From: an uncultured Eubacteriales bacterium
Lineage (GTDB): Bacteria; Acidobacteriota; Aminicenantia; Aminicenantales; Aminicenantaceae
Length of the DNA: 64,000 bases
Reading direction: 5' to 3'
NCBI GenBank assembly: GCA_964346815.1
Contig: CAYFWF010000003.1
Span: 181,559-245,558, forward strand
Shown in pieces: positions 26,069 through 41,297 of this stretch (positions are counted from its first letter, which is position 1; each line of letters starts with the position of its first letter). Below the pieces are notes generated by a model. That model was given only the letters and a program-made list of their open reading frames with translations. It made no database searches and was not told the origin of the DNA. The translations under genes and the position numbers were made by a program.

Positions 26069-27430
26069 ATGGATGGATTGCTCTCCCGGCTGACAAAGCG
26101 GATGGATCATCTTTATGAATTCGACAGGGAGCCTGTTTCGCTGGAAAAGCTGCAAACCGGGGCCAGATTCGCGGGCCTTTTTGCAGGAGAGCATGTGGCT
26201 GCCACTGAATTTGTCATAGGCGCATTTTTTGTCCTTCATGGCGTCAGCCTGCATGACCTGATCCTCGGGCTTTTTATCGGGAATTTTCTGGCAGTCTTGT
26301 CTTGGACCTTTATATGTGCGCCTATCGCCACTCGGACGCGTTTGACTCTGTACTGGTATCTGAGAAGGATTGCCGGCCCCGGGCTCAACTTTGTCTACAA
26401 TATCGCCAATGCCCTCCTTTACTGCGTTCTGGCAGGGGCTATGATTGCCGTATCAGCCACTGCCCTCGGTTTAGCCTTCGGGATCAGCATTCCTTCCCTG
26501 GATGACGTATATCCCCGCAGCTTCGGCTGGATTGCCTTGACCCTGGCCATCGGTACGGTGTTTACGATCCTGGCAGTTCTGGGATTCGAAAAGCTGAGCC
26601 GTTTTGCCCAGGTTTGTTCTCCCTGGATTTTTATCCTGTTCATAGCCGGGGCTGTCGCGCTTCTTCCGCGCCTGGGTGTTCATCCAAATTTCGATAATCT
26701 CTTGGAGATTGCCGCGACAAAAATATGGAACGGAGTCGCTGCTGAAGGCCAAGAAAAATATCATCTTGGACATATTTTGTTCTTCGCCTGGTTTTGTAAT
26801 CTGGCCATGCACGTTGGACTTTCTGATATGGCTTTGTTCCGGTATGCGAGAAACTGGATCTACGGATTGTATTCCGCCTTTGGCATGTACCTCGGACATT
26901 TCCTTGCCTGGATTTGTTCAGGAATTATGGTGGCAGCCGTGGGAAGGGAGATGCATCCGGGATTGATGGCTTTTGAAGCCGCAGGACTGGCTGGAGCAGC
27001 AGGGGTGTTCATCGCAGGATGGACTACAGCCAATCCCACCCTATACAGGGCTGGGCTTGCCCTGCAGGTGATCACTCCTGGCTGGCCTCGCTGGAAGGTC
27101 ACGCTCTCTGCTGGCATTCTGACAACTCTGCTCTCTTGCTTTCCAGTTTTTTTTATGAAACTTTTGGATTATGTAGCCATTTATGGACTGGTTTTGATGC
27201 CCATCGGTGCCATCGTTTTCGCCGAACACTGGATTTTTCCCCTGCTTAAAATCGACCGATACCAGGCAGAGAAAAAGAGGTGGGTGTTCAACTGGACGGC
27301 TGCTGGAGCTTGGGGGGGAACCCTGGTGCTGTGTTTCTTCATGCCCATCCATCTTTTTTTCCGCTGGCTGCCCGGGTATCTCTTTGCGCTGATACTGTAC
27401 GTCCTGCTCAATTTAGCGAGAAGGAAATGA
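26069..27430 (+). CDS. NCS1 / purine-cytosine permease-like 12-TM transporter
   Basis: 453 aa, about 12 hydrophobic segments. General resemblance to the cytosine/hydroxymethylpyrimidine permease (CodB/CytX) family; substrate not assignable from sequence. Confidence 0.45.
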   Translation: MDGLLSRLTKRMDHLYEFDREPVSLEKLQTGARFAGLFAGEHVAATEFVIGAFFVLHGVSLHDLILGLFIGNFLAVLSWTFICAPIATRTRLTLYWYLRRIAGPGLNFVYNIANALLYCVLAGAMIAVSATALGLAFGISIPSLDDVYPRSFGWIALTLAIGTVFTILAVLGFEKLSRFAQVCSPWIFILFIAGAVALLPRLGVHPNFDNLLEIAATKIWNGVAAEGQEKYHLGHILFFAWFCNLAMHVGLSDMALFRYARNWIYGLYSAFGMYLGHFLAWICSGIMVAAVGREMHPGLMAFEAAGLAGAAGVFIAGWTTANPTLYRAGLALQVITPGWPRWKVTLSAGILTTLLSCFPVFFMKLLDYVAIYGLVLMPIGAIVFAEHWIFPLLKIDRYQAEKKRWVFNWTAAGAWGGTLVLCFFMPIHLFFRWLPGYLFALILYVLLNLARRK

Positions 27431-27629: not shown

Positions 27630-30290
27630 CTATCTCTGTTTCAGTTCGAAGTCGTAATGGCCGGAACCAACCTTAATGATCACAGCGCTTCGGGTCTCTT
27701 CCACCATTTGAATGCCGGACACACCTGTCAGGAATTTCTGGCCGTCGTAGATTTGCTGCCCGCTTTCTTTGAGGACAATGGCTCTCAGTTTCAGCTTAGG
27801 TACATGGATCTCCGCCTCTGTGTTTACAGGAAGAAATACTTCCAGGGTGATGAGGTCGGTTGATTTTGACCAAGCGGTCGTTAGAGGTCCCCTGGGTGTA
27901 TGAATCGTTCCAGATACGTATTCCAGGTCCCGCACCATACAGGGTTGAATCAGAACGTTCTGGAATCCTATCGAATCTTCCTCCTGGTCGATGCCGGCCA
28001 AAACCCGATACAGCCAGGACCCGACGCTCCCGAACATCGGATGATTGTGGGAATTCATCGAGGGACCTGTCTTATACTGCCACAGTTCCCAAAGGGTCGT
28101 GGCACCGTTTCGGATCATAAAACCCCAACTGGGATAACTGGTTTGAGTGGCGAGTTCGTAGGCTAAGGAGGATGCACCGAAGTCAGCCAAGACTTCCATG
28201 ATGTATTTCGTCCCGAGAATACCGGTAGTCAAATGGGTATTGTTTTTATAGAGGATGTCGCTTTTTAAGTTTTGGAAGACTGAACCTCTCACTGACTCCG
28301 GCGCTAAATCCAGAAACAAAGCCAGTGTGTTGGCGGTTTGTGTCCCATTCGCATAACTCCTGGTTTCGGGATCGAAGTATTTGTTGTGGATGGCCTTCTT
28401 GATCTTCTCGGCCAGCTCCTGGTAGATTGTTACCTCATCCCTGTAGCCCAACGTCTGAGCCATTTTTTCGAGAAGGCGGACACTGTAGTAATAATAAAAA
28501 GAGGAAACGAAGCTGCCCGGCGTCCTATCGATAGCCACCCAATCCCCATAGTAACTGTATTGAAGGAGGTTGGCTGCGGATTTTGAGCGAAGAAACTCCA
28601 CGTATTTTTTCACACCTTCGTAGTGCTCCTCGAGAATTCGCATATCGCCATAATACCGATACATGTACCAGCAGAGCAGGGGATAGGCAGCACCCCACGC
28701 AGGATCGGCCGGACGCTGGCCCCATATGTGAGGGACGGTATCTGTTATGGTCCCTTCGTGGTCCTGGACATCTCGGATATCCTGGATAAATTTGGTGTAT
28801 AACGCGCCCATATCAAAATTCATCAAAGCCTCTTCTGCTGTGAGATGAGCATCTCCGAGCCATCCCATTCGTTCATCCCGCTGATTGCAGTCTGTGGGAA
28901 TGCTGTGGAGGTTGGTTTTTTGTCCCCATACGATCAGCCGCTGAAGTCGGTTCAAGAGGAGATGAGAGCAGGAAAAACCGCCGATTTGTTCGACAGCGGA
29001 ATGGACGACTTTCCCCCTTATCGTATCAGCGGTTGGAACACCAGGATATCCTGTCAGTTCCACATAGCGAAAACCGTGGTAGGTGAACCGGGGTTCATAG
29101 GCTTCTTTCCCCTGTCCTTTCAAAATATAAAGATCTTGGGCTCTGGCAGATCGCAGGTTTTCTTGGTTGATCATACCATTAGCGTAGAGCAGTTCTGAAT
29201 ACCGGAGGCGCACTTCAGTACCGCGGGGACCGGATAGTTCAATCTCAGCCCATCCGCTGAAGTTCTGTCCCATGTCAAAGACATAAACTCCCTCTCGGGG
29301 TTGGGTGATATGCAGGGGAACAAGCGTATCCATCACCCGGATCGGCTGAACCATCTGCGCGGAGAGGGAGCCTTTAGGAGCGATCCCCGTTTCAACAGGA
29401 CTCCAACCGGTGTCATCGAAGCCCGGTCTATCCCATCCCGGTGTTTCCAGTCGGGCGTCGTACACCTCACCGTTGTAGATGCTATCAGATACGATCGGTC
29501 CGTCTTTTCCTTTCCAGGATTTGTCGCTGAAAAATGTGAGTTTTTTTCCGTCTTCACATTCTATATTGACTTGAAGAATCAGAAGGAAAGGGCCGCTCCA
29601 GCCCTTTCCGAGCATTACGCCCAGGGCGTTTTCCCCCTCTAGAAGTCTATCCGTAATATCGTATGTTGAATAGAGAACTCTTTTTTCGTAAGTTGTGTAT
29701 CCCGGGTCGAGAACGTTGTTCCCCACCTTCTGTCCATTCAAGCGCATCTCATAGTACCCCAGCCCGCAGATAAAGGCTCTCCCGCGTTTGACTTTTCCGT
29801 TTACGGAAAACTCTTTGCGGACCTGGTTCATCCCGCCTATCCATTCTCCGTCCCAATCTTCGGGATGGAAAAGGCCTGTGTCAAACCGAGCAGCCTTGCT
29901 GTAAGGACTGGGAATATCATCTTTATCCCAATAACGAACCTTCCAAGTGTAGGTCCGATCGCTCTCTAAAGGCGTCCCCTCGTAAACCACATGTATAGAC
30001 CGATCAGAGAGAACTTTGCCTGTATCCCATAAAATATCGGATTTCTCAGAAGCGCTGGTGGATACGATCAATTGATACGCAGACTGTTTTTGGCCCCTTT
30101 CTGAGTGCCGCAGCATCCAGGAAAACCGGGGCTTTCGCACATCTATTCCCAAAGGATTCTTAAGGTATTCACATCTGAGATTATGGGGAGGCTGAGGACC
30201 GGCATTGTGGGTAGATGCTGCGGTCCGAGCCGAAGCTGTACAAAGCAGTGAACACGCTAGGACGATCTTCAAACATTGCTCAGCGATCAT
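27630..30290 (-). CDS. alpha-L-rhamnosidase, glycoside hydrolase family 78, secreted
   Basis: Signal peptide. GH78 N-terminal hallmark LRCEYLKNPLGIDVRKPRFSW. 886 aa, typical multi-domain GH78 length. Confidence 0.85.
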   Translation of the reverse strand: MIAEQCLKIVLACSLLCTASARTAASTHNAGPQPPHNLRCEYLKNPLGIDVRKPRFSWMLRHSERGQKQSAYQLIVSTSASEKSDILWDTGKVLSDRSIHVVYEGTPLESDRTYTWKVRYWDKDDIPSPYSKAARFDTGLFHPEDWDGEWIGGMNQVRKEFSVNGKVKRGRAFICGLGYYEMRLNGQKVGNNVLDPGYTTYEKRVLYSTYDITDRLLEGENALGVMLGKGWSGPFLLILQVNIECEDGKKLTFFSDKSWKGKDGPIVSDSIYNGEVYDARLETPGWDRPGFDDTGWSPVETGIAPKGSLSAQMVQPIRVMDTLVPLHITQPREGVYVFDMGQNFSGWAEIELSGPRGTEVRLRYSELLYANGMINQENLRSARAQDLYILKGQGKEAYEPRFTYHGFRYVELTGYPGVPTADTIRGKVVHSAVEQIGGFSCSHLLLNRLQRLIVWGQKTNLHSIPTDCNQRDERMGWLGDAHLTAEEALMNFDMGALYTKFIQDIRDVQDHEGTITDTVPHIWGQRPADPAWGAAYPLLCWYMYRYYGDMRILEEHYEGVKKYVEFLRSKSAANLLQYSYYGDWVAIDRTPGSFVSSFYYYYSVRLLEKMAQTLGYRDEVTIYQELAEKIKKAIHNKYFDPETRSYANGTQTANTLALFLDLAPESVRGSVFQNLKSDILYKNNTHLTTGILGTKYIMEVLADFGASSLAYELATQTSYPSWGFMIRNGATTLWELWQYKTGPSMNSHNHPMFGSVGSWLYRVLAGIDQEEDSIGFQNVLIQPCMVRDLEYVSGTIHTPRGPLTTAWSKSTDLITLEVFLPVNTEAEIHVPKLKLRAIVLKESGQQIYDGQKFLTGVSGIQMVEETRSAVIIKVGSGHYDFELKQR

Positions 30291-30458: not shown

Positions 30459-30547
30459 CAAGAATTCAAGAGCGGAAGTTCCAATTTTAATTGACACAAA
30501 CAGGACAGTGTGATAAGTGGAGTCTGACGAGCAAGAGGTGTGCAGAT

Positions 30548-32020
30548 ATGGCTGTTTCCCGATATTTAGCTTTGGACTTGGGCGCCGAGAGCGGGAGGGC
30601 GATTCTCGGCTACCTTGACAGAGAGAGGCTGCAGGTCAAAGAAATCTCGCGCTTTCCCAATCGGATGCTTTCTATTCGTGGACATCTGTATTGGAATGTC
30701 TTCCGTCTCTTCGAGGAAATCAAGAAAGGAATGGAAATCTGTTTTACAGAGGCGCAAATTAAAAGCCTGGCTTTGGATACCTGGGGTGTCGATTTCGGTT
30801 TTTTGGCTGAGGATGGAACGATCATTGGCCTGCCATTTGCCTACAGGGACCCTCATACCAAGGGAAAAATGGAGGAATTCTTCGAAAGGATTCCGAAAAA
30901 TAAAGTCTATCGGCTGACCGGAATACAGTTCCTCCAGTTCAATTCCCTGTTTCAGTTGTTTGCCATGAAGAGGGACAAATCATCCCTTTTGGAAGCGGCC
31001 AAAGATCTTCTTTTTATTCCGGACCTCTTCAACTACCTTCTGACAGGACAAAAGAAAACAGAATTCACTTTTGCGACAACATCCCAGCTCTATAATCCGA
31101 GGAAGGGAGGTTGGGAAGAGGAACTTTTCGAAGCCCTGGAAGTCCCGAGTTCGCTCATGCAGGAGATTGTCCAGCCGGGTACGATTATTGGAGAATTGGA
31201 TGATGGAACGAGCCGAACTCATGGAGAGGATCCGGTGCCGGTGATAGCCGTGGCCTCACATGATACAGGCTCGGCAGTTGCAGCAGTGCCTGCCACCGGC
31301 CAGGACTGGACATACATAAGTTCAGGAACATGGTCGCTGATGGGGATCGAAACGCACGAACCGATAATCAATGATCAAGCGATGGAACTCAACTTCACCA
31401 ACGAAGGCGGCGTGGAGGGGACTTTTCGATTCTTAAGGAATATCACTGGACTCTGGCTCTTACAGGAATGTCGAAAGTCCTGGGCGAAAGAAAAGGCTTA
31501 CAGCTACGAAACACTGATGATCTTGGCGCAGGAGGCCCCAGCCTTCCAGTTCTTCGTCGATCCTGACTGGCAAGGCTTCCTCAGCCCTCAGGATATGCCC
31601 GAGGCTATTCATAAATATTGCAAAGCGACCAAGCAGAAAACGCCTGGTTCGCCTGGTGAATTTGTGCGGTGTATTCTCGAGAGTCTGGCACTGAAATACC
31701 GCATCGTGCTGGATCGATTGAGAGAGATTCATTCCCAGCCTATTCGGAAGGTTCATATCATCGGCGGGGGAGTTAAGAATGCTCTGCTCTGTCAGTTTAC
31801 TGCCAATGCCACTGGCCTTCCTGTATATGCTGGCCCCATAGAGGCTACATCGATCGGAAACATCATGATGCAGGCCTTCACCTTGGGAGATGTGCCTTCA
31901 GTAAGAGAGATGCGGGAGGTGGTTCGCCGCTCATTTGAACTTTCAGTCTATGAGCCTGAACATGTGAACGAGTGGGATAGGATTAAAGAGCAATATCTCG
32001 AGATTATTGGTATGGAGTGA
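30548..32020 (+). CDS. rhaB: rhamnulokinase (FGGY carbohydrate kinase)
   Basis: N-terminal FGGY motif YLALDLGAESGRAILG. Length about 490 aa, immediately followed by rhaA. Start set at MAVSRYL with AAGAGGTG SD; the ORF-track start at 30491 is an extension. Confidence 0.8.
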   Translation: MAVSRYLALDLGAESGRAILGYLDRERLQVKEISRFPNRMLSIRGHLYWNVFRLFEEIKKGMEICFTEAQIKSLALDTWGVDFGFLAEDGTIIGLPFAYRDPHTKGKMEEFFERIPKNKVYRLTGIQFLQFNSLFQLFAMKRDKSSLLEAAKDLLFIPDLFNYLLTGQKKTEFTFATTSQLYNPRKGGWEEELFEALEVPSSLMQEIVQPGTIIGELDDGTSRTHGEDPVPVIAVASHDTGSAVAAVPATGQDWTYISSGTWSLMGIETHEPIINDQAMELNFTNEGGVEGTFRFLRNITGLWLLQECRKSWAKEKAYSYETLMILAQEAPAFQFFVDPDWQGFLSPQDMPEAIHKYCKATKQKTPGSPGEFVRCILESLALKYRIVLDRLREIHSQPIRKVHIIGGGVKNALLCQFTANATGLPVYAGPIEATSIGNIMMQAFTLGDVPSVREMREVVRRSFELSVYEPEHVNEWDRIKEQYLEIIGME

Positions 32021-32024
32021 AGAT

Positions 32025-33305
32025 ATGGGAGATAGCAGAAAAATTGTAGAAGCCTTCAAAACAGCCAAGGAAATTTTCCGTGAAATAGGGGTGAATGTAG
32101 ACGATGCTCTAGAACGACTAAGCCAGATATCTATCTCTATACCTTGCTGGCAGGCGGATGATATCACAGGCTTTGAAAAGTCGAATGCACAACTGGAGGG
32201 GGGAGGCATTCAAGTCACGGGTCATTTTTTTGGAAAGCCTCGAACGATCGAAGAGCTGAGGATGGACCTCGAGAAGGCTTTTTCCTTGCTGCCCGGGCAT
32301 CACCGCTTGAACCTTCACTCGATTTATGGAGAATTCGGGACGAGTGAAGTCGGCCGCGATCAAATGGATGCGCGTCATTTCAAAGGTTGGGTAGAATGGG
32401 CCAGTCAAAAGAACATCAAGCTGGACTTCAATGCGACCTGCTTTTCTCACCCCCGAGCGGATTCAGGATTTACTCTGAGCAGCAAAGATAAGGGAATCCG
32501 CAGCTTCTGGATAGAACATGTCAAGCGCTGTCGCGAGATAAGTGCGTATATGGGACGAGCACTCGGCAGCTCCTGCATCCACAATCTTTGGATTCCGGAT
32601 GGGATGAAGGACATAACTATCGACCGAAAGGCCAGGAGATCCTTGCTGAAAGAGTCTCTTGAAGAAATATATTCTGACGATTACGACCCCAAGGAAATGA
32701 AGGATTCTCTGGAAAGCAAGCTGTTTGGAATCGGAAGCGAATCCTTTGTGGTTGGTTCCCATGAGTTCTATTTTGGATATGCTCTTTCCAAAGGAAAGAT
32801 GCTCTGTCTGGATGCGGGACATTTTCATCCTACAGAGTCTTTATCGGATAAAATCTCGTCTGTTCTCCTTTTCTTCGAAGAACTCCTTCTTCATCTCAGC
32901 CGGGGCATCAGATGGGACAGCGATCATGTGGTCATCCTGAATGAGGATATGAGGAGCATTGCCGAGGAGGTCATAAGGAGTGACGCTCTGGACAGGACCC
33001 ACATGGCCTTGGATTTTTTCGATGCCAGTATGAATCGGGTGGGGGCTTGGGTTATCGGAGCCAGAGCTGTCCTGAAGAGTTTTCTTTGTGCTTTGCTTCA
33101 GCCCGTGGAAAAGCTCCGCAGATTCGAGGAGGAGCGGGATTTTTTTTCCAGGCTCGCTCTTCTTGAAGAAATAAAAACTCTCCCTGTCGGTGTGATCTGG
33201 GATTACTATTGTCTGAAGAGGGATGTCCCGGTATCGAACCTGTGGATGAGAGAGGTCAAGCGGTACGAATCAGAGGTTCTCTACAAACGTCAAGGATCAA
33301 AATAG
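32025..33305 (+). CDS. rhaA: L-rhamnose isomerase
   Basis: SISIPCWQADDITGFE matches the E. coli RhaA PVSMHCWQGDDV region. About 426 aa. Start at MGDSRKIVEAF 5 nt after the rhaB stop. Confidence 0.85.
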   Translation: MGDSRKIVEAFKTAKEIFREIGVNVDDALERLSQISISIPCWQADDITGFEKSNAQLEGGGIQVTGHFFGKPRTIEELRMDLEKAFSLLPGHHRLNLHSIYGEFGTSEVGRDQMDARHFKGWVEWASQKNIKLDFNATCFSHPRADSGFTLSSKDKGIRSFWIEHVKRCREISAYMGRALGSSCIHNLWIPDGMKDITIDRKARRSLLKESLEEIYSDDYDPKEMKDSLESKLFGIGSESFVVGSHEFYFGYALSKGKMLCLDAGHFHPTESLSDKISSVLLFFEELLLHLSRGIRWDSDHVVILNEDMRSIAEEVIRSDALDRTHMALDFFDASMNRVGAWVIGARAVLKSFLCALLQPVEKLRRFEEERDFFSRLALLEEIKTLPVGVIWDYYCLKRDVPVSNLWMREVKRYESEVLYKRQGSK

Positions 33306-33770
33306 GCTCTTCACTAAATCAGCCAGATTTTGTGCATACTGTTTGCAGCATTCTTGCGCCCTCTCATCCGGAAAATCGATGGATACCGGTCCATAATGAT
33401 CGCCTCTATGGTCTCCCTGGATGATCATTCCGTGGATCAACAGCCCGTTGAGCAGATTAAGGACAGTTGTTTCATTTCCCCCTCCTACATTTGCAGCAGA
33501 AGAAAACGCTCCGCCAACCTTTCCCTTAAGCCTTCCATGGAATTTGATACTCTCATCCAAAAGCTTCTTGACCGGCCACGCCATCGATCCATAATAGGTC
33601 GGCGAACCCAGAACGATACAATCATAGTCGATCAGGTCGTCGGCCTTGGTTTCTTCCACTCTTTTCAGATCGACCGATAGATCTTCTTTTTTCATCACGT
33701 CGGTGATGATTTGGGCCATCTTCTCCGTGTTCCCTGTCTGAGAATAATAACATATCAGGACTTTTGCCAT
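33297..33770 (-). CDS. flavodoxin-family protein (WrbA/multimeric flavodoxin-like)
   Basis: KVLICYYSQTGNTEKMA (flavodoxin FMN-phosphate loop T-G-N-T) and LGSPTYYG motif. 157 aa. Confidence 0.75.
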   Translation of the reverse strand: MAKVLICYYSQTGNTEKMAQIITDVMKKEDLSVDLKRVEETKADDLIDYDCIVLGSPTYYGSMAWPVKKLLDESIKFHGRLKGKVGGAFSSAANVGGGNETTVLNLLNGLLIHGMIIQGDHRGDHYGPVSIDFPDERAQECCKQYAQNLADLVKSLF

Positions 33771-33785
33771 AATCTTACCTCCTGT

Positions 33786-35108
33786 TTACCATTTCTGGGC
33801 CTTTATAGGTTCCATTTTTCGCAGATTCAATCCTCTTTCATACGCTCCGCTTCGATAAAGACAAATTTCTCTTACCGACGATGGATGATGCAGGACTTCA
33901 GAGAGAGACTGAGATCCCACTCCCCAAACACCTCCCCCTCTCACAATCACTACCTTGTAATCATGAAGCTGCTCGAGAAAAGTCTCTATGTTGAATTTTG
34001 GTGGGAGAACAGGTATGGCGAGGTAAAGGTAGCTTCCCTCTGCATCGATAGGAATGACCCGGTCGAGCGGACGTCTTTCTCCCGGATAGATGAAGTGGGA
34101 ATGAGCCTCGGCTTCGGGAACCCAGCAGTGGATCACGGTTTGAAAATTTGTCTCTGCATAGATGGTTTTATGAATATCGAGTTCCCTGGTATCTCCTCTT
34201 TCTCGGCTCAGTGGGATTTCCAGGAGTGGGCCACCGATTTCTCTCGGCATGGAAGCCTTGGGAGAATAAAACATGGTTCTGACTCCGCGGATGGAGAAAG
34301 AGCCTGTATGGAAGGGAGACAGCCTCGATTCGAAGATCCTGGCTCCAGTCTTATGGAATTCCTTGATCAGTTCTTCTTCACGGGGGAAGTCACAGGCTTC
34401 ATCTCCTTGGATCGAGTATTCATCTGGAGGATATGTGAAATGGGCATCCGGGCCGGAATAAATTTTTTCCTTCAAGGAATCGACATCAACCTGAATTTTT
34501 TTCATGAGGCGTGAGATATAGCCTGCGTTGTTGGCCACACACTGGAGGAAAAATGCCTCTTTCAGTGTCCGCCCCTTGGAAAAAGCTCCATGCGCCTGCA
34601 CGAGTGTCACAGGATGACGGGAAAGCCTTTCCGGTATGACTCTGACCATTTTTGTTGAACCACTGGGGAGGGCGAACCAATCTACAGGGATGATACCGTC
34701 AAGATGGTAATACCCCAGAGGATCCACAGGATAAAAGGGCTTGGGCTGACCGGGCTTCGCTTCGTCATCGAGGGTGTCGATGATAAGATCCTTGGTATGA
34801 CAGTGCATCGAAGCGCCGACGTCTTTAAGAGATAAAATTTTTACGTGGATATCCGTCTCAGAGGAAGCTTTATAATATCCAAAATCCGTTTCTTTGAAAG
34901 ACGGAAAGCAGATATGTTCCCGCTCGAGATCTCCTTTCTGGGATCCCGTAGCTGTGATCGCCATCCTTTCCCTTCCCTTCTCATCCCTCCACCGCATCAC
35001 CATATTGCCGCAGTGGCTGTCCTGAATATCATACAAGAGCGAAGCCCGCCCGACAGTTTGAAACAACCGTACAAGTTCTTCGCTCGCTTTCCAGTAGTCC
35101 TTCCTCAT
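33786..35108 (-). CDS. tandem class II aldolase/adducin-fold protein (candidate rhamnulose-1-phosphate aldolase analog); second domain degenerate
   Basis: N-terminal domain has ITATGSQKGDL, MHCHTKD (H-x-H metal site) and VQAHGAFSKGRTLKEAF. Residues about 215-440 repeat the pattern as FYSPKASMPREIG, IHCWVPEAEAHSHF and VIVRGGGVWGVGSQSLSEVL, with the HG His replaced by Gly. Confidence 0.55.
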   Translation of the reverse strand: MRKDYWKASEELVRLFQTVGRASLLYDIQDSHCGNMVMRWRDEKGRERMAITATGSQKGDLEREHICFPSFKETDFGYYKASSETDIHVKILSLKDVGASMHCHTKDLIIDTLDDEAKPGQPKPFYPVDPLGYYHLDGIIPVDWFALPSGSTKMVRVIPERLSRHPVTLVQAHGAFSKGRTLKEAFFLQCVANNAGYISRLMKKIQVDVDSLKEKIYSGPDAHFTYPPDEYSIQGDEACDFPREEELIKEFHKTGARIFESRLSPFHTGSFSIRGVRTMFYSPKASMPREIGGPLLEIPLSRERGDTRELDIHKTIYAETNFQTVIHCWVPEAEAHSHFIYPGERRPLDRVIPIDAEGSYLYLAIPVLPPKFNIETFLEQLHDYKVVIVRGGGVWGVGSQSLSEVLHHPSSVREICLYRSGAYERGLNLRKMEPIKAQKW

Positions 35109-36949
35109 TTTATCTCATCGATCTTCAGAGATTTCACCAATCTTTCGGTGGGCCTCCCTTTTGCATCCCATTCTCTGGCCAGATAATAGTCGGCTCGCAG
35201 TCTTTCTATCAGGTCAGACGAAATCATTCTCTCTTTACTCCCGACCAGTATAGGCTCTTGCTGGAACCGTTCGGGAAGAGTATCCTCGTCCGACTCCAAT
35301 CCAGTTTCGAGGTTGAATATCCTCTCGAGAGTAGCTACGCGGTTAGCGATCTCTTCTAGCCTTGCGATAGAAAAATTCATCCCAGTGATGCCGCTCGCAA
35401 TACGGGCCCATGGGTCTGAAGAGAAGGCAAATCCTGTAAACCGGCATATCCCCAGACTATCTTGGATGATCCCCAGATTTTGCATGTTGCGAATAGCGAT
35501 GGGTGACTGAAGAATGCTGTACCGAGGAATCTCCTTTGTGCCTCCAAAGAAGGCAAGCGAGACCGCATATCCTCCCCTGAGATGGCAGGCTCCTGTCGGA
35601 GAGGTCATATAGCCCAAAGCCTGGGTAAACGAAGCCCTCGGATCATAAGCAGGGATCTCCATTTTTTTCACAGTCATGGCATATTCGGGATGCTTATAAT
35701 GTTCCGCCAAGCGGTGAGATCCCTCTGCTAATAAATCACCCATCCCTTCCCTAAGTGCGATGAGGTCCGCCATTTTCACCAGGATCTCTGCATCTCCGAA
35801 ACAGAGACGGATATCTTCCTTTATCTCTTGGGTTATAATCCCTTTTTCTGCAAGTTCCAGAGCACAAGCCAGCGTTCCCCCAAAGCTGATGGTGTCCAAT
35901 CCCAGCTCGTTGCAGCGGTAGTTCGCCAAGGTGATACTTCCCAGATCATAGATTCCACAATTCGGACCGGTCATCACGATTGTCTCGTATTCAGGCCCTT
36001 CTCCTTTTTTGTCACCCAGGCGGGTGTGACGCTGGCAGGCTAATGCGCAGCCGTAACAGGCTCCGGCTCGTTCGAGAATGGAGCGGTGCAAAGTCTCTCC
36101 CGATATTTGATCCAAATCTTCTTCTTCGTGAATATTGTTCTGAAAGTTCCGATAGGGAAGCATCTCGATGATATCGATGAGCTTTAGGAGTCCAGAGGTT
36201 CCCAGTTGCCGCAGGAGGCGCTTGGTAATGGGCGCTGATCTCAACAGATAGAGGGCTTGGTCGAGTCCGGAGTTAAAGCGTTCCTCGTCACATATCTGTG
36301 CTTTTAGCCTTCCTGACACTTGAATCGCCTTGAGGTTTTTACTGCCGAAGACGGCTCCCGGGCCTCCGCGCCCGTAGGCTCTGTTTTTATCGTTCATTAC
36401 AGAGGCAAAGCGGACTAGGCTTTCTCCTGCTGGACCGATGCAGAGTATGCGGGGGCGGTCGTTCGGGGCAGCATCCTGGGTCATTTGATCCGTTGTCTCG
36501 TGCACCTCCAATCCCCAAAGATGATTTTGAGGCACGATGTCCACATGATCTGGATGCACATCTATGGTTACAGGCTCTGAGGCCTTGCCTTTGATCACCA
36601 GAATATCATAACCGCTGGACTTGAACGCGTGAGCCCAGCTGCCTCCACAGTTCGAGCTTCCGATTAATCCTGTCAGAGGAGACTTGAAAACCATATGTCC
36701 CCTGCAAGCTGTCGGAGCGCGTGTCCCGATAAGAGGAGATGTGGCGATGACTATGACATTTTCACCACCGAGTGGGTCACACAGGGGATTGATCTCATCA
36801 AAGAAGATACGGGTAGCAAGTCCTCTCCCGCCCAGATAATGCTCAGCGAGGGACTGTCTCAAGGGTATTTCCCGAATCTCTCCTTTCGAGAGGTCGATTT
36901 CAAGGATTTTCCCGTGGTAACCGAACAGTATATGATCATTCATGAGCAT
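35105..36949 (-). CDS. aor: aldehyde:ferredoxin oxidoreductase family protein (tungsten/pterin AOR)
   Basis: N-terminus FGYHGKILEIDLSKGEI…YLGGRGL and overall 614-aa AOR architecture. True start may be the third Met (36943). Confidence 0.85.
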   Translation of the reverse strand: MLMNDHILFGYHGKILEIDLSKGEIREIPLRQSLAEHYLGGRGLATRIFFDEINPLCDPLGGENVIVIATSPLIGTRAPTACRGHMVFKSPLTGLIGSSNCGGSWAHAFKSSGYDILVIKGKASEPVTIDVHPDHVDIVPQNHLWGLEVHETTDQMTQDAAPNDRPRILCIGPAGESLVRFASVMNDKNRAYGRGGPGAVFGSKNLKAIQVSGRLKAQICDEERFNSGLDQALYLLRSAPITKRLLRQLGTSGLLKLIDIIEMLPYRNFQNNIHEEEDLDQISGETLHRSILERAGACYGCALACQRHTRLGDKKGEGPEYETIVMTGPNCGIYDLGSITLANYRCNELGLDTISFGGTLACALELAEKGIITQEIKEDIRLCFGDAEILVKMADLIALREGMGDLLAEGSHRLAEHYKHPEYAMTVKKMEIPAYDPRASFTQALGYMTSPTGACHLRGGYAVSLAFFGGTKEIPRYSILQSPIAIRNMQNLGIIQDSLGICRFTGFAFSSDPWARIASGITGMNFSIARLEEIANRVATLERIFNLETGLESDEDTLPERFQQEPILVGSKERMISSDLIERLRADYYLAREWDAKGRPTERLVKSLKIDEIK

Positions 36950-37242: not shown

Positions 37243-37431
37243 ATGACAAAGATGATCAACAAATCAAAGGAGAACCTCAAAAAGCATTTTCGTACGATCG
37301 GAATTTCAGGAGTTCTGTGTTCTTGGATAACCATGGCTTTGGTATGGTTCGGTGTGGCCACTGCATCTTATGTCAGTTATTGTCTGACCGCAGGGCTTTT
37401 CGGATTGGCTATTATGGCGGGTAAAAACTAA
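37243..37431 (+). CDS. small (62 aa) membrane protein, hypothetical
   Basis: Strong SD GAGGAGG 7 nt upstream of ATG. Two predicted TM helices (ISGVLCSWITMALVWFGVATASYVSYCLTAGLFGLAIMAG). Confidence 0.4.
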   Translation: MTKMINKSKENLKKHFRTIGISGVLCSWITMALVWFGVATASYVSYCLTAGLFGLAIMAGKN

Positions 37432-37478
37432 CAATCTGTTTTTTCATATTTTAAGAGGGTTGTGGTAGTATGGGGTAA

Positions 37479-38024
37479 ATGGCAGAGCCCCATCCTTTTT
37501 CGTTGGTTAAACTGGTTTGCGGAATCATAGCAAACGAGGAAAGAGCTTTTCAGCGTTCTAGAGAGAAGCTGGCCCGATATTATGGTGCGATCGATCTTGA
37601 GAGTGCGCAATTTTCTTTCGATTTGACGGATTACTATGAGAGACAGATGGGAAAAGGTTTGAAGAGGCAATTTATCAGTTTCGAGAAGCTCATCTCTCCT
37701 ACATCGTTAAGCGAGATAAAGCTGCAGACAATTGGGTTGGAAGTCGAGATGAAAGAAGAGCTCAAAGCGAGTCACAGGATTGTCAACCTGGATCCTGGAT
37801 ATCTCACTTCCTCCGCGCTGGTCATGGCTACGGCTAAGGACTTTGCCCACCGTATCCCTCTTCAGCATGGGATATATGCACACCTTGAACTCTTGTTCGG
37901 CAAGAATGAAGTGAGAACTCTGGATTGGACATATCCTGATTATAGAAAGGGTGGATACCAGGATTTTTTTTTAAGAGTTCGGCGGATCTATCTAGCCCAA
38001 CTGAAAAAAAAGCCTGGGAATTAA
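37479..38024 (+). CDS. conserved hypothetical protein (possibly DUF4416 family)
   Basis: 181 aa, soluble, no catalytic motif recognised. DUF4416 assignment is from memory of the family and is weak. Confidence 0.35.
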   Translation: MAEPHPFSLVKLVCGIIANEERAFQRSREKLARYYGAIDLESAQFSFDLTDYYERQMGKGLKRQFISFEKLISPTSLSEIKLQTIGLEVEMKEELKASHRIVNLDPGYLTSSALVMATAKDFAHRIPLQHGIYAHLELLFGKNEVRTLDWTYPDYRKGGYQDFFLRVRRIYLAQLKKKPGN

Positions 38025-38061: not shown

Positions 38062-39219
38062 TCACTCTTCGTCTATATCCAGGGCAGAGATTTCTCTAAG
38101 CTTTTTGACAATTTCAGGAAGCTCGCGCAGCACTACGGCCACGTCTTCCTCTGTATTGAATCGGCCTAAAGACATGCGGACCGAAGATCTGGCGATCTCG
38201 GGTTTGAGTCCGATGGCACTCAGGACATGTGAGACTTCCTCCGAGTCTTCACTACAGGCTGAGCCTGTGGAGACATAGATATCTTTAGTGGCTAAGGATA
38301 AGAGGATGGCTTCGGCCTCCAATCCGTAGAAAGCAAAATTCAATGTCCCTTTGATCCTCTCTGTTTCGTGTCCGTTGAATTTCACTTTTGGAATATTATC
38401 TTCGATCCCTTTCTTCAACCGATCGGACAGCTTTTCGATGTGCTTCTTTTCTTTATCTTTCTTTTCCATAAGAATTCTGACAGCTTCTCCAAAACCAACG
38501 ATGCCAATGGTGTTCTCCGTTCCAGCTCGCATGAGCCTTTCTTGGTGACCGCCGTAAATCAAAGGCATGATATTCGTGCCTTTTCGGATATAAAGCGCGC
38601 CGATTCCCTTGGGACCATAGATTTTATGGGCAGAAATCGATAGGAGGTCCACTCCCAATTTGTCCACATTGACATCGATTTTCCCGAAGCTCTGGACAGC
38701 ATCGGTGTGTACAAGAACTCCTCTGTCTTTCGCTATTTTTACCACTTCTTCGATGGGTTGGATGGTGCCCAACTCATTGTTGGCATGCATGATGGAGATG
38801 AGAGCTGTTTGGGAGGTGATGGACTTTTCCAGTGACTCGAGATCGATCATACCATGTGAGTCAACGGGCACGAACGTCACTTTTTTGCCTTTTCTCTCAA
38901 GATAGTAAGCTGTTTCCATGACGGCAGGGTGTTCTATCGCCGATGTTATGAATTCGTTTTTCTCAGGAGAAGCGTCAAATATTCCCCTTATGGCAAAGTT
39001 GTCCGCTTCTGTACCTGAGCCGTTGAAGAAAATTTCGGTCCTCTTGGCTGCCAATGCTTTCGCGATCGTCTCCCGGGATTCAGTGATGATCTCTTTTACC
39101 ACCCGTCCAATGGGATAGAGTGAAGAAGGATTCCCGAAATGTTCCTTCAGAAATCCCGACATTTTTTCACAGACTCGAGGGTCGAGTGGAGTCGTTGCAT
39201 TATTGTCTAAGTAAACCAT
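38062..39219 (-). CDS. cysteine desulfurase (NifS/IscS-type class V aminotransferase)
   Basis: YLDNNATTPLDP N-terminus, PLP-lysine region SAHKIYGPKGIGALYIRKG, and GGHQERLMRAGTENTIGIVGFGEA (matches IscS GGGQERGLRSGTEN). Confidence 0.85.
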   Translation of the reverse strand: MVYLDNNATTPLDPRVCEKMSGFLKEHFGNPSSLYPIGRVVKEIITESRETIAKALAAKRTEIFFNGSGTEADNFAIRGIFDASPEKNEFITSAIEHPAVMETAYYLERKGKKVTFVPVDSHGMIDLESLEKSITSQTALISIMHANNELGTIQPIEEVVKIAKDRGVLVHTDAVQSFGKIDVNVDKLGVDLLSISAHKIYGPKGIGALYIRKGTNIMPLIYGGHQERLMRAGTENTIGIVGFGEAVRILMEKKDKEKKHIEKLSDRLKKGIEDNIPKVKFNGHETERIKGTLNFAFYGLEAEAILLSLATKDIYVSTGSACSEDSEEVSHVLSAIGLKPEIARSSVRMSLGRFNTEEDVAVVLRELPEIVKKLREISALDIDEE

Positions 39220-39246
39220 GACCGATTTTAGAAACTGTTTCGATAC

Positions 39247-40161
39247 TTACGCTTTCAGCCGCTCCTTGATGATTTTAACCACCTCAAAACCCGCTCTTTT
39301 TTGACCTTCTTTGGCAGCCGCTCCAATATGAGGGGTGGCCAATACATTCGGATGATCTATGAGAGCAAAATCATCCGGAGGTTCTTTCTCAAAAACATCG
39401 ATGGCCGCTGCCCTGACTTTGCCCGACTCGAGCGCGGTCAAGAGGGCTTTCTCGTCCACTGTTCCTCCCCGGGAAGCATTGATCAGGATCACTCCATCTT
39501 TCATCTTGGAAAATTCTTGGTCGCTGATAAGATGCCTCGTCTCCTTTGTCAAAGGAAGGTGAAGAGTAATCAGATCGGATTGTGACAGGAGTTCGTCAAG
39601 GTTGACCTGTTTGATGTCCACATCTGTCTGGCAGACGATGATATCAAAGACTAAGACTTTCATCCCGAAGGCAAGTGCACGTCTGGCTACTTCACATCCA
39701 ATCCGTCCGCCTCCTATGATCCCCAATGTTTTTCCATACAGCTCCGTACCTGAAAAAGCCTTTTTCTCCCATTTGTGCTCCTTCATCGAGATGTTCGCCC
39801 TGCCGTGATTGCGTACGGCTGCCAGCATCAAGCCAAAGGTGTGTTCAGCTACAGAAATTGTGGTGGCGGCTGGGGTGTTCGCGACTTGGATGGACTTTTC
39901 TTTTGCGGCTGCCACATCGATGTTGTCCAGACCGATGCCCGCTCGGATTATGAGTTCCAGGTTCGAAGCAGCATCGATAACGTTTTTTGTAACTTTCGTG
40001 GCTCCGCGGACTACGGCCGCATGGAACGCAGGAATGGTTTTGATGAGTTCTTCCTCGTCCATTCCTGTCTTTACAGTGACTTCCAGATTCGGCAGGGATT
40101 TCAGGTCCTCAAGAGCTTCAGGGTTCATCGGATCGGCGATGAGTACTTTCTTCATTCCCAA
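39247..40161 (-). CDS. D-isomer-specific 2-hydroxyacid dehydrogenase, D-3-phosphoglycerate dehydrogenase-like (short form, no ACT domain)
   Basis: NAD-binding GIIGGGRIGCEVARRA. 304 aa. Sits between two class V aminotransferase-fold genes (serine-pathway-like arrangement). Confidence 0.75.
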   Translation of the reverse strand: MGMKKVLIADPMNPEALEDLKSLPNLEVTVKTGMDEEELIKTIPAFHAAVVRGATKVTKNVIDAASNLELIIRAGIGLDNIDVAAAKEKSIQVANTPAATTISVAEHTFGLMLAAVRNHGRANISMKEHKWEKKAFSGTELYGKTLGIIGGGRIGCEVARRALAFGMKVLVFDIIVCQTDVDIKQVNLDELLSQSDLITLHLPLTKETRHLISDQEFSKMKDGVILINASRGGTVDEKALLTALESGKVRAAAIDVFEKEPPDDFALIDHPNVLATPHIGAAAKEGQKRAGFEVVKIIKERLKA

Positions 40162-41297
40162 TTCTCCTTTAAAACCTCTTCCGCGGCTTCGATAGCCTTT
40201 CCGGTCTCGAAATCATAACCAAGCTCTGATAGAGTCATTTCCATAGCGCTTATAGCTGTGATGATATCGAATCCTCCCATGTATCCCAAATGGGCAATCC
40301 GGAAGAATTCCCCTTTATGGGGATCTTGAGCGCCTGCAATATAGGCGCCGTACTTTCCCTGCATAAGCTTAACGAACTGGACTCCATCGATTCCTGATGG
40401 AATTTTAACCGCTGTCAGGATGTTCCCCGGATTCTTGGAGAGGAGCTGGAGACCTATAGCCTGAACAGCGGAACGTGCCGCATCTCCGAGGATACGATGA
40501 TGTTCAAAGAGCTTCTCCAAACCCAAAGATTTGATGATTTCTAACGCCTTCTTCTGTTGTACGATGAGACTGACGGCTGGAGTCCAGGGAGTGGTTCGTT
40601 TTCCGATGCTCTTTTTAGCTGCTTTTGCGTCAAAATAGAATTTTGGCATGGTGGATTTTTCGACCAAATCCCAGGCCTTAGGACTGAAGGCGATATAGGC
40701 TAGGCCGGGGGGGATCATGAACGATTTTTGGGAACCTGCGACCAATATGTCGACTTTCCATTCATCCATGGGGCAGGGAGTAGCGCCGAGTCCTGAAATC
40801 CCGTCTACAGCGAGGATGGCATCCGTATCAGCAATGACTTCTCCATAGCCTTGGATGTCATATATGGTTCCAGAGGATGTTTCCGAAAGAGTAGAGAAGA
40901 CAGCTTTCGTGTCAGGCTGAGCCTGAAGTTCTTCAGCAAGCTGTTCTTTGGTGAAGGGTTCACCCCAATCGAGCTCGATCTCCTTGACTTCTGCTCCATA
41001 GGCGCGGCAGATTTTTCCCCATCTCTCGCCGAATTTCCCTCCGTTCAAAGTGATCACTTTGTCTCCCGGACAAAGGGCGTTCACTACGGCAGTCTCCATA
41101 GCTCCGGATCCAGATGATGTCAGGATGAAGACATCCTGTTCTGTCTGGTACACATACTTGAGACCCTCTGTTGTCTCTATGAAAATTTCTGAAAATTCTG
41201 GAGTGCGGTGATGGATGATCGGCTCGGCAGCGGCCGAAAGCACCTTCTCCGGAACAGGAGTAGGGCCAGGAGAAAGCAAATAATATTTTTTTATCAT
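40152..41297 (-). CDS. class V aminotransferase (serine-pyruvate/alanine-glyoxylate or archaeal-type phosphoserine aminotransferase family)
   Basis: LLSPGPTPVPEKVL N-terminus typical of the AGXT/SerC-like family. 381 aa. Overlaps the dehydrogenase gene by 10 nt. Confidence 0.75.
   Translation of the reverse strand: MIKKYYLLSPGPTPVPEKVLSAAAEPIIHHRTPEFSEIFIETTEGLKYVYQTEQDVFILTSSGSGAMETAVVNALCPGDKVITLNGGKFGERWGKICRAYGAEVKEIELDWGEPFTKEQLAEELQAQPDTKAVFSTLSETSSGTIYDIQGYGEVIADTDAILAVDGISGLGATPCPMDEWKVDILVAGSQKSFMIPPGLAYIAFSPKAWDLVEKSTMPKFYFDAKAAKKSIGKRTTPWTPAVSLIVQQKKALEIIKSLGLEKLFEHHRILGDAARSAVQAIGLQLLSKNPGNILTAVKIPSGIDGVQFVKLMQGKYGAYIAGAQDPHKGEFFRIAHLGYMGGFDIITAISAMEMTLSELGYDFETGKAIEAAEEVLKENWE

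Follow-up and report, generated by a model that had tools for sequence, protein, structure and literature searches.

The locus and the tandem reading frame

The window, by which we mean the whole 64-kb stretch of DNA analysed in this study, carries on its minus strand an operon in which a gene for an aldehyde:ferredoxin oxidoreductase of the AOR family (35105..36949) is followed by a tandem class II aldolase gene (33786..35108, a span that takes in the stop codon) and a flavodoxin-family gene (33297..33770). The stop codon of the AOR gene overlaps the start codon of the aldolase gene by 4 nt (ATGA), and the flavodoxin gene, recognised by Pfam Flavodoxin_5 and Flavodoxin_1, begins 15 nt past the aldolase stop with AGGAGG ahead of it. 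Convergent with this operon on the plus strand is the gene for L-rhamnose isomerase RhaA (32007..33305; NCBIfam NF002203, 643 bits with a cut-off of 572). Rhamnulokinase RhaB (30491..32020, plus strand) contains FGGY_N and FGGY_C domains and scored 509.8 bits with TIGR02627 (cut-off 528); that match opens at residue 26, with the ATG near 30548 as the probable true start. A GH78 alpha-L-rhamnosidase gene with five Pfam rhamnosidase domains lies on the minus strand (27630..30290). An Rfam scan of the window gave no match, and therefore no Moco/Tuco riboswitch was found ahead of the AOR gene.

The aldolase reading frame opens with ATG and encodes 440 amino acids before the stop. It scored 81 bits with PF00596 (cut-off 22), and the Pfam Aldolase_II match falls in two stretches, which places the protein in the class II aldolase/adducin superfamily. 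At present, the gene is annotated merely as 'class II aldolase/adducin family protein'.

That two domains of the class II aldolase fold are covalently fused was borne out by the two Pfam stretches and by the profile and fold matches obtained for each half. The rival reading, a frameshift or an assembly error that fused two neighbouring aldolase genes, was rejected and can be dismissed for practical purposes: nearly all of the best 120 of 724 database homologues are 438–444 amino acids long, and the gene stands in a single frame in 204 species-level genomes, mostly of Aminicenantes. The homologues of about 440 amino acids share 65–86% identity, and distant tandem subfamilies of 389–476 amino acids have the same two-domain layout. 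The tandem aldolase is a real, conserved gene in which only the first domain keeps the zinc active site. In the literature searched, neither a tandem class II aldolase nor an operon pairing AOR and aldolase genes is described.

Two copies of one fold with unequal active sites

The original prediction had described this protein as internally duplicated on the basis of short motifs, all of which were located in the translation: ITATGSQKGDL (residues 51–61), MHCHTKD (residues 101–107) and VQAHGAFSKGRTLKEAF (residues 170–186) in the N half, and FYSPKASMPREIG (residues 280–292), IHCWVPEAEAHSHF (residues 326–339) and VIVRGGGVWGVGSQSLSEVL (residues 387–406) in the C half. Direct comparison of the two halves placed the duplication beyond chance, both by BLASTP (E=0.002) and by profile-profile alignment (E=0.0045 over 156 columns), the latter in the register originally proposed. 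The N-half profile matched E. coli FucA by hhalign with 99% probability (E=7.6e-18), and the C-half profile matched T. thermophilus FucA 2fk5 (E=1.1e-19). An AF2 model of the C half alone (residues 215–440) reached a pLDDT of 90.8, and its best PDB match was again 2fk5 (E=4e-12, TM 0.76), showing that this half adopts the class II aldolase fold and not an unrelated one; the model of the full-length 440-residue protein was of moderate quality only (pLDDT 71.6, pTM 0.75).

The protein comprises an N-terminal catalytic aldolase domain (residues 1–205; 34494..35108, minus strand), an inter-domain linker (residues 206–243; 34380..34493, minus strand) and a C-terminal pseudo-aldolase domain (residues 244–440; 33789..34379, minus strand), which closes with a conserved tail whose last residue is W440. 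The linker is poorly conserved (mean pairwise identity 0.49 vs 0.72–0.73 for the two cores) and has partly low pLDDT in the full-length model. In a neighbour-joining tree of the halves and single-domain relatives, the C halves formed one clade in 46 of 60 bootstraps, with the N halves intermixed among the single-domain relatives, a pattern that fits, if weakly, a dead domain that arose once.

In the N half, the residues N35, T54/G55, S82/S83, E84, H102, H104 and H173 were mapped by hhalign on N29, T43/G44, S71/S72, E73, H92, H94 and H155 of E. coli FucA, in that order. Conservation was assessed in 30 tandem homologues with 21–80% identity: N35, S82, E84, H102, H104 and H173 are invariant (30/30), G55 is found in 29/30, T or S stands at position 54 in 29/30, and S83 is less strict (20/30). 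With three histidines, a Glu73-type base and a phosphate pocket in place, the N half has the residues of a zinc ketose-1-phosphate aldolase and keeps all those that serve catalysis and phosphate binding in FucA.

The C half has neither the metal ligands nor the phosphate pocket. As had been noted at the outset, the histidine of the HG motif (H173 in the N half) is replaced by glycine (G392) and other ligands drift, with W329 standing in place of the second histidine of the HxH motif (H104); further replacements are S270 for Asn and A285 for Gly44. Among the 30 tandem proteins, E309 is found in 17, H327 in 12 and a histidine at position 329 in 8, and neither a histidine at position 392 nor the Asn equivalent occurs in any (0/30 each). 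Because the zinc and phosphate site is absent here and in 30/30 tandem homologues, the C half cannot act as an aldolase site on its own, as the proposal of a non-catalytic second copy had anticipated. The accompanying term 'degenerate' does not hold: since the C half is conserved as strongly as the N half (mean pairwise identity among close homologues of 0.73 vs 0.72) and has invariants of its own (D355, E357 and G393), it is not decaying. As judged from these identities, selection on the C half is as strong as that on the N half.

All positions that reach at least 80% conservation among 32 single-domain relatives were then mapped on both halves. The zinc and phosphate residues are retained in the N half only. 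The Glu of the P-x-D-x-E-G motif, by contrast, is present in 97% of the single-domain relatives and in 100% of the C halves, and in none of the N halves (0/30), where the equivalent of E357 is hydrophobic in all proteins. In the window, this invariant loop of the C half is encoded by the codons of D355-A356-E357 (34038..34046, minus strand), D355 and E357 being present in 30/30 tandem proteins. The Asp of the motif in the N half, D129, is also nearly invariant, and therefore the Asp part of the motif is not specific to the C half.

The loop aligns to H112–M114 of FucA, with the Glu at M114, beside Tyr113, and the Tyr itself absent, at a precision of about one residue and with the hhalign run for the C half placing the loop elsewhere. 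In FucA, the adjacent subunit supplies Tyr113' to the active site, where it removes the proton of the C4 hydroxyl (PMC11841055). The retention of the Glu in the C half and its loss from the N half argue against a cis action on the zinc site, for which the opposite pattern would be expected. We infer a complementary loss across a shared active site, in which E357 would act in trans on the site of the N half. The earlier suggestion that the second copy mimics an oligomer interface can thus be refined, in that the C half may keep the very element that acts in trans on a neighbour's site.

Linkage to the oxidoreductase and to sugar genes

The product of the upstream gene belongs to the AOR family over its full length (AFOR_N 381 bits, AFOR_C 248 bits). 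Among solved structures, it is nearest to 9mqx (E=1.4e-140) and 1aor (E=7.6e-137). For the Cys ligands of a 4Fe-4S cluster, its translation offers a CxxCxxxC motif ('CYGCALAC') and, further on, 'GICRF', both of which align to 9mqx. By family, the enzyme is expected to be of the tungsten type, with the metal being putative. The original prediction had pointed to the adjacency of this gene, and the linkage turned out to be far stronger than could have been known from one locus. In the relatives' loci, collected with an alignment of close homologues that returned mainly Aminicenantes, the AOR gene lies directly upstream of the tandem aldolase in 67 of the 73 non-redundant close Aminicenantes loci, 42 of these 67 having the same 4-nt overlap. 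It also does so in 6/6 distant loci (subfamilies with 27–46% identity, from Planctomycetes, KSB1 and others). The overlap of the start and stop codons suggests stoichiometric co-expression. A flavodoxin gene occupies the equivalent position in 7 of the 73 loci, and flavodoxin is the probable electron acceptor for the AOR. Of the further roles suggested at the outset for the second copy, channelling of the aldolase product toward the AOR may occur, and nothing that would point to a regulatory function was found.

Genes of 6-deoxy-sugar and lactate metabolism recur around this pair. RhaA is a neighbour at 17 loci and RhaB at about 10, the window included; with a rhamnosidase counted in as well, such neighbours are found here and at 10–17 related loci. 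One distant locus has the order fucosidase-AOR-aldolase-...-FucI-LutA-LutB-LutC-FGGY kinase; a Planctomycetes locus has FucI and an FGGY kinase close to the AOR-aldolase pair; another subfamily has an AOR-aldolase-LutABC operon; 15–19 Aminicenantes loci have LutC and a LutB/A fusion immediately downstream; and LarA (lactate racemase) is downstream in a KSB1 locus. The neighbours vary across loci, RhaA/RhaB or FucI/kinase and LutABC or LarA, and together with the rhamnosidase or fucosidase genes they indicate lactaldehyde and lactate. No second class II aldolase gene was found in the 64-kb window or in the rhamnose, fucose and lactate clusters cited here. With an isomerase and a kinase adjacent and no other aldolase in the cluster, the gene in the window probably belongs to a phosphorylated rhamnose/fucose pathway. 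Most Aminicenantes loci have no rhamnose or fucose gene within 6 kb of the aldolase, so the substrate is assigned from the smaller number of loci that do, together with the lactate genes.

A proposed deoxy-sugar aldolase and its alternatives

The observed fold, residue pattern, conservation and gene linkage led us to propose, with a probability of about 0.62, that the tandem aldolase is a class II 6-deoxy-L-ketohexose-1-phosphate aldolase of a flavodoxin- or ferredoxin-linked deoxy-sugar pathway, presumably pseudo-dimeric in its oligomeric state and with its active site split between the halves. The likely substrate would be L-rhamnulose-1-phosphate in the organism of the window and L-fuculose-1-phosphate in other subfamilies. 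In the proposed pathway, L-rhamnose set free by the rhamnosidase would be converted by RhaA and RhaB into rhamnulose-1-phosphate, which the N-terminal domain would split into DHAP and L-lactaldehyde. The co-translated AOR would then oxidise the lactaldehyde to L-lactate, passing the electrons to the flavodoxin of the operon or to ferredoxin, and in many relatives LutABC would carry lactate on to pyruvate. The ancestral homo-oligomeric site, located between neighbouring subunits, would now be divided over the two fused copies, the N half contributing the zinc, general-base and phosphate-binding residues and the C half contributing two trans-acting elements, its free C-terminal tail and the Asp355-x-Glu357 loop, which stands where FucA has Tyr113'.

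The FucA enzymes of E. coli and T. thermophilus (1fua/4fua, 2fk5) share their fold with both tandem halves, and the N half resembles them in its zinc ligands, Glu73-type base and phosphate pocket. The cleavage of a ketose-1-phosphate into DHAP and L-lactaldehyde is likely here too. The P-x-D-x-E-G loop and the W-ending tail are common to the tandem aldolase and short relatives of the T. thermophilus type. FucA consists of one domain of about 200 amino acids and assembles into a homotetramer with four equivalent sites, whereas the tandem protein has two fused copies with a metal site in one only, and in place of the non-conserved Tyr113 it has a conserved Glu one position off, in the C half only. 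E. coli RhaD (1gt7) belongs to the same superfamily, and the reaction in the genome of the window is probably alike, considering the adjacency of RhaA, RhaB and the rhamnosidase. RhaD is, however, a single 274-residue domain and not an orthologue (phmmer E=0.2–0.4). The tandem aldolase falls below all the curated FucA cut-offs and below those of the other named families (PRK03634 for RhaD, 17.1 vs 170 bits; NF040649, FucA_Meth, 18.9 vs 250; PRK08660, 123.9 vs 203; PRK08333, 36.9 vs 267; RU1PAldHalo, 29.1 vs 300). Orthology to RhaD, FucA or MtnB was rejected because the scores are far under the curated cut-offs.

A precedent for joining the two steps is RhaEW (YuxG / Caur_2283), a bifunctional rhamnulose-1-phosphate aldolase and lactaldehyde dehydrogenase whose non-orthologous class II aldolase stands in for RhaD in rha clusters, where the lactate dehydrogenase genes lldD and lldEFG sometimes carry the pathway on to pyruvate (Rodionova et al. 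2013, PMC3870299). In both systems, an aldolase is tightly coupled to the enzyme for the oxidation of lactaldehyde to lactate, a role that is predicted for the AOR. The partner in RhaEW is a fused NAD-dependent short-chain dehydrogenase, whereas the tandem aldolase is paired with a tungsten-type AOR that is translationally coupled but a protein of its own, and whose putative acceptor is flavodoxin or ferredoxin. Moreover, the tandem protein has no SDR domain, its second domain being Aldolase_II and dead. The partner gene itself encodes a full-length member of the AOR family, to which P. furiosus AOR (1aor) and E. limosum WOR1 also belong, with 1aor and 9mqx as near matches. WOR1, a tungsten enzyme, oxidised lactaldehyde in vitro (PMC11725836). 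In the literature searched, no characterised AOR is described as having a genetic link with an aldolase or as taking part in rhamnose/fucose catabolism; one MAG study suggests such a connection, in passing only (PMC9324843).

A division of labour between active and dead copies has parallels elsewhere. In trypanosomatids, deoxyhypusine synthase and the AdoMetDC prozyme each provide a case in which a dead paralogue completes a shared active site, although these pairs are separate polypeptides with unrelated folds.

The conserved C half might be explained otherwise. It may serve as a covalently attached structural scaffold that holds the oligomer and takes no share in catalysis, its conservation reflecting folding and packing. 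The residues common to both halves are mostly structural Gly and Pro (G34/G269, P127/P353, G174/G393, G179/G398), and the adducin head domain, which was among the fold matches, shows that the class II aldolase fold survives without metal ligands and without catalysis, although adducin belongs to the eukaryotic cytoskeleton and has no enzyme as a partner. We consider this improbable, since the N halves, all hydrophobic at the E357 position, fold well without the Glu, which is therefore not required for folding, and the C core is conserved as much as the catalytic N core. Somewhat more credible, yet still doubtful, and compatible with the split-site aldolase, is that the pseudo-domain chiefly acts as an adaptor docking the aldolase on the AOR for a direct hand-over of lactaldehyde, its conserved residues forming an interface and not a catalytic element. 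The tandem layout and the AOR adjacency do occur together in the close and distant loci counted above, usually with overlapping codons, and in RhaEW the aldolase activity needed an active fused dehydrogenase (PMC3870299). In contrast, no AOR-aldolase fusion was present among the odd-length remote hits checked, which comprised one PRTase-aldolase fusion, one queuosine-synthesis fusion and one unrelated repeat protein, and E357, the sole invariant specific to the C half, goes back to single-domain enzymes, which conserve it with no known AOR partner.

The substrate could also be another ketose-1-phosphate, namely one of the DHAP shunt (5-deoxyribulose-1-phosphate or methylthioribulose-1-phosphate) or D-ribulose-1-phosphate, with the AOR oxidising acetaldehyde, methylthioacetaldehyde or glycolaldehyde and not lactaldehyde. 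Weak NCBIfam matches to the models of MtnB and ribulose-1-phosphate aldolase, the appearance of 6btd, an aldolase of 5-deoxyribose disposal, among the fold matches, the lack of adjacent rhamnose and fucose genes at most loci and the broad substrate range of AORs speak for this idea. We regard it as very unlikely, considering the recurrent sugar and lactate neighbours described above, from RhaA/RhaB to LarA, and the absence of MtnK/MtnA-type genes from the annotations at the nine loci inspected for them. The reading of the tandem protein as a split-site 6-deoxy-sugar aldolase is preferred. A bolder extension, which we put forward tentatively, is that it forms with the AOR a dedicated two-enzyme machine, in which the C domain would complete the N site and dock the AOR so that lactaldehyde is retained.

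Rhamnose and fucose are major 6-deoxy sugars of plant, algal and bacterial polysaccharides, and the lactaldehyde derived from them is toxic and sets the fermentation balance by its fate. The known routes are reduction to propanediol, often in microcompartments, and NAD-dependent oxidation by AldA or RhaW. If the proposed function is true, a flavodoxin- or ferredoxin-linked AOR oxidation hard-wired to its own unusual aldolase would provide anaerobes with low-potential electrons from the lactaldehyde step, and the aldolase step that is missing when pathways of Aminicenantes and other uncultured phyla are reconstructed would be filled. For enzymology, the protein would represent a natural interface active site split between the live and dead copies of one fold. 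The two-enzyme machine, if true, would constitute an unrecognised ferredoxin-linked branch of deoxy-sugar fermentation, leading from rhamnose or fucose to DHAP and lactate and on to pyruvate with a yield of low-potential electrons. Uncultured anaerobes of sediments, among them Aminicenantes, KSB1 and Planctomycetes, would then share this branch widely.

Fold, duplication and spread of the tandem aldolase

The tandem aldolase is encoded on the minus strand at 33786-35108, where the open reading frame of the original prediction proved real, with 440 codons, an ATG start and the stop codon within these coordinates, and all six quoted motifs (6/6) were found at their protein positions. Aldolase_II (PF00596, 81 bits) was matched by Pfam in two stretches of the 440-aa protein. 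Comparison of the N half with the C half supported the internal duplication (BLASTP, E=0.002; profile-profile, E=0.0045 across 156 columns) in the same register as originally read, pairing SSE84 with E309, H102 with H327, H104 with W329, and H173 with G392. The matches of each half to solved class II aldolases were much stronger than this: the N-half profile matched E. coli FucA at E=7.6e-18 and 99% probability (hhalign), and the C-half profile matched 2fk5, the FucA of T. thermophilus, at E=1.1e-19.

The AlphaFold model of the full-length protein was moderate (pLDDT 71.6, pTM 0.75), and its best PDB fold matches were FucA structures. Residues 215-440 modelled alone gave a confident structure (pLDDT 90.8, pTM 0.89), with 2fk5 as the best PDB match (E=4e-12, TM 0.76, 24% identity). 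Therefore, an unrelated fold for the C half is not supported, and the class II aldolase fold proposed for it holds in prediction.

An assembly or frameshift artefact joining two genes was rejected as the origin of the fused form, since the best 120 of 724 homologues in the protein database are nearly all 438-444 aa long (65-86% identity) and the tandem gene occurs as a single frame in 204 genomes when each species is represented by one genome. The carriers are almost all Aminicenantes (Acidobacteriota) MAGs, with whose loci the window is syntenic at ~80% protein identity. An exhaustive HMMER search over 1.84 billion cluster representatives added ~25 further clusters (389-476 aa, 27-46% identity), aligned across the whole query and derived from Planctomycetes, KSB1, Adiutricales, and bacteria without a name. 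Databases label the homologues generically, as 'class II aldolase/adducin family protein' or 'ribulose-5-phosphate 4-epimerase/fuculose-1-phosphate aldolase'.

Residue conservation and a putative split active site

An alignment of 30 tandem proteins (21-80% identity) showed nine invariant residues in the N half (G34, N35, T52, S82, E84, H102, H104, H173, and G174), three in the C half (D355, E357, and G393), and no others. By hhalign, N35, T54/G55, S82/S83, E84, H102/H104, and H173 correspond to E. coli FucA N29, T43/G44, S71/S72, E73, H92/H94, and H155, together all the residues to which catalysis and phosphate binding by FucA are ascribed (PMC11841055). The C-half counterpart of the Asn is Ser in 28/30 tandem proteins, that of Gly44 is Ala, and the first, second, and third His ligands are retained in 12/30, 8/30, and 0/30, respectively. 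Judged from these substitutions, the C half cannot serve by itself as a zinc aldolase site, and the claim that the second copy is non-catalytic is borne out for that copy taken on its own. The label 'degenerate', however, was not: mean pairwise identity among close homologues was 0.73 for the C core, 0.72 for the N core, and 0.49 for the linker (residues 206-243), and in the wide set 0.31, 0.37, and 0.16, respectively. By this measure the C half is not degenerating, being instead strongly conserved.

From the HMMER search, 35 further matches were taken, of which 32 single-domain relatives (179-223 aa) were used. Essentially all have the HxH, GHG, and P-x-D-x-E-[G/A] loop motifs, and several have a W-terminated tail. 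When positions at least 80% conserved in these relatives were mapped onto both halves, the zinc, base, and phosphate residues were found only in the N half, and the structural Gly, Pro, and His together with the loop Asp in both; one residue, the loop Glu, was clearly restricted to the C half. This Glu is present in 97% of the single-domain relatives, in 30/30 C halves (E357) and in 0/30 N halves, which have Leu or another hydrophobic residue there. A cis-acting residue would stay where the metal site stays, but the distribution of the loop Glu is the opposite.

MAFFT and hhalign placed the loop on FucA 112-114, flanking Tyr113, with an accuracy of only ~1 residue. The FucA active site is a cleft shared with the adjacent subunit, whose Tyr113' deprotonates the substrate C4 hydroxyl (PMC11841055). 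In the tandem protein, the sole free C-terminal tail lies on the C half, is conserved, and ends with W440. In FucA, the tail carrying Tyr209' likewise works on the adjacent subunit's site. The tandem protein may thus derive, by duplication and fusion, from a homo-oligomer that had its active sites at subunit interfaces, after which complementary site halves would have been lost, the cis elements staying in the N half and the trans elements in the C half. We give this trans-complementation mechanism about even odds.

Gene neighbourhood and proposed pathway

The tandem aldolase is the middle gene of a three-gene minus-strand operon. The stop codon of the aldehyde:ferredoxin oxidoreductase (AOR) gene (35105-36949, minus strand) overlaps the aldolase start as ATGA, and a flavodoxin-family gene (33297-33770, minus strand), preceded by AGGAGG, begins 15 nt past the aldolase stop. 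By sequence the partner is a canonical AOR, with the cluster cysteines present and 9mqx and P. furiosus 1aor as the closest solved structures (E ~1e-137 or better). RhaB and RhaA, the latter above its NCBIfam cut-off, are convergent with this operon, a GH78 rhamnosidase lies beyond them, and the tandem gene is the sole class II aldolase gene of the 64-kb window. The flavodoxin gene and rhaA (plus strand) converge with a 9-nt overlap at their 3' ends (33297-33305), leaving no space for separate terminators. At the 5' end of RhaB (30491-30565), the mechanical ORF call starts at TTG 30491, but the rhamnulokinase model matches from residue 26; translation more likely begins at codon 20, an in-frame ATG ('MAVSRYLALDLG'). 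Rfam detected no family at gathering score on either strand of the 64 kb, including the 530 nt upstream of AOR, a plausible place for a Moco/Tuco riboswitch.

Upstream of the operon, a DUF4416 gene (37479-38024, plus strand) lies on the opposite strand, an arrangement kept in at least nine related loci, with a possible ~62-aa small membrane-protein ORF (plus strand, ~37250-37440) just ahead of it. Two class V aminotransferases flanking a D-2-hydroxyacid dehydrogenase (38062-41297, minus strand; syntenic with related loci L006 and L007) appear unrelated to the deoxy-sugar genes. The rhamnosidase is flanked by a URO-D-family gene (24724-25782, minus strand) and a 453-aa ORF without a Pfam match (26069-27430, plus strand), a pair syntenic in L006, which has a B12-binding protein at the flavodoxin position; in L088, a distant locus, the AOR-aldolase pair also has URO-D homologues next to it. 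Speculatively, these genes might belong to a corrinoid methyltransferase system whose substrates are methylated deoxy-sugars.

The link to the adjacent AOR suggested by the original prediction is real and very tight: among 73 non-redundant related loci, AOR lies directly upstream of the aldolase in 67 (4-nt overlap in 42/67), and most AOR-less loci are too short in upstream sequence to tell. One locus has the aldolase beside RhaA, RhaB, and a rhamnosidase without AOR. RhaA is a neighbour in 17/73 loci, RhaB in ~10/73, and flavodoxin in 7/73; directly downstream, a LutC-like LUD-domain protein occurs in 15/73 and a LutB/LutA fusion (LUD, 4Fe-4S, and CCG) in 19/73. Ahead of AOR, 28/73 loci, from other Aminicenantes, have an NTPase_1 (PF03266) gene of ~176 aa, followed in locus L004 (6739-7522) by a ThiS/MoaD-like 91-aa gene; both are absent from the window and may have a role in cofactor maturation.

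In distant subfamilies, AOR is directly upstream in 6/6 loci: fucosidase-AOR-aldolase-GH92-GDT1-FucI-LutA-LutB-LutC-FGGY kinase; AOR-aldolase with FucI and an FGGY kinase ~5 kb off in a Planctomycetes MAG; FGGY kinase-AOR-aldolase-LarA in a KSB1 MAG (L092); AOR-aldolase-LutA-LutB-LutC; and two with the pair alone. The LarA-type lactate racemase of L092 (6692-7969) replaces LutABC, which suggests that lactate stereochemistry has a bearing on the later steps. Thus, the aldolase is bracketed by deoxy-sugar isomerase/kinase genes upstream and lactate-utilisation genes downstream.

The simplest pathway consistent with these neighbourhoods would comprise cleavage of a 6-deoxyketose-1-phosphate by the aldolase into DHAP and L-lactaldehyde, oxidation of lactaldehyde to L-lactate by AOR, transfer of the electrons to flavodoxin or ferredoxin, and oxidation of lactate to pyruvate by LutABC. 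The proposed aldolase chemistry is conventional, and an AOR-family tungsten enzyme oxidises lactaldehyde in vitro (PMC11725836). A deoxy-sugar-phosphate aldolase feeding lactaldehyde to AOR is the predicted role, which we hold to be quite probable. Taken whole, with the split interface active site included, this reading is the best explanation, with a probability of roughly 0.6.

Comparison with known aldolases

Within the class II aldolase superfamily, to which the tandem aldolase belongs by homology, its nearest group is the short 'FucA' of T. thermophilus type. It falls below the curated cut-offs of RhaD, FucA, MtnB, and all other named models, so it is filed under none of the named aldolase families. 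Functionally it resembles RhaEW, in which a non-orthologous aldolase and an NAD-dependent lactaldehyde dehydrogenase are fused and which substitutes for RhaD in many bacteria, with rha regulons sometimes including lactate dehydrogenase genes (PMC3870299). The tandem aldolase departs from RhaEW in its redox partner (a tungsten-type AOR paired with flavodoxin or ferredoxin instead of an NAD-dependent dehydrogenase), in coupling by overlapping genes instead of fusion, and in the second, dead aldolase domain. A MAG paper mentioned in passing that AORs may detoxify the lactaldehyde of rhamnose degradation (PMC9324843); our literature search found neither the tandem aldolase nor its operon with AOR described in any paper. 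If the reading is right, it would supply a missing pathway step for uncultured anaerobes that are abundant, and the tandem aldolase would offer a clean case, open to testing, of complementary degeneration within a fused homo-oligomer.
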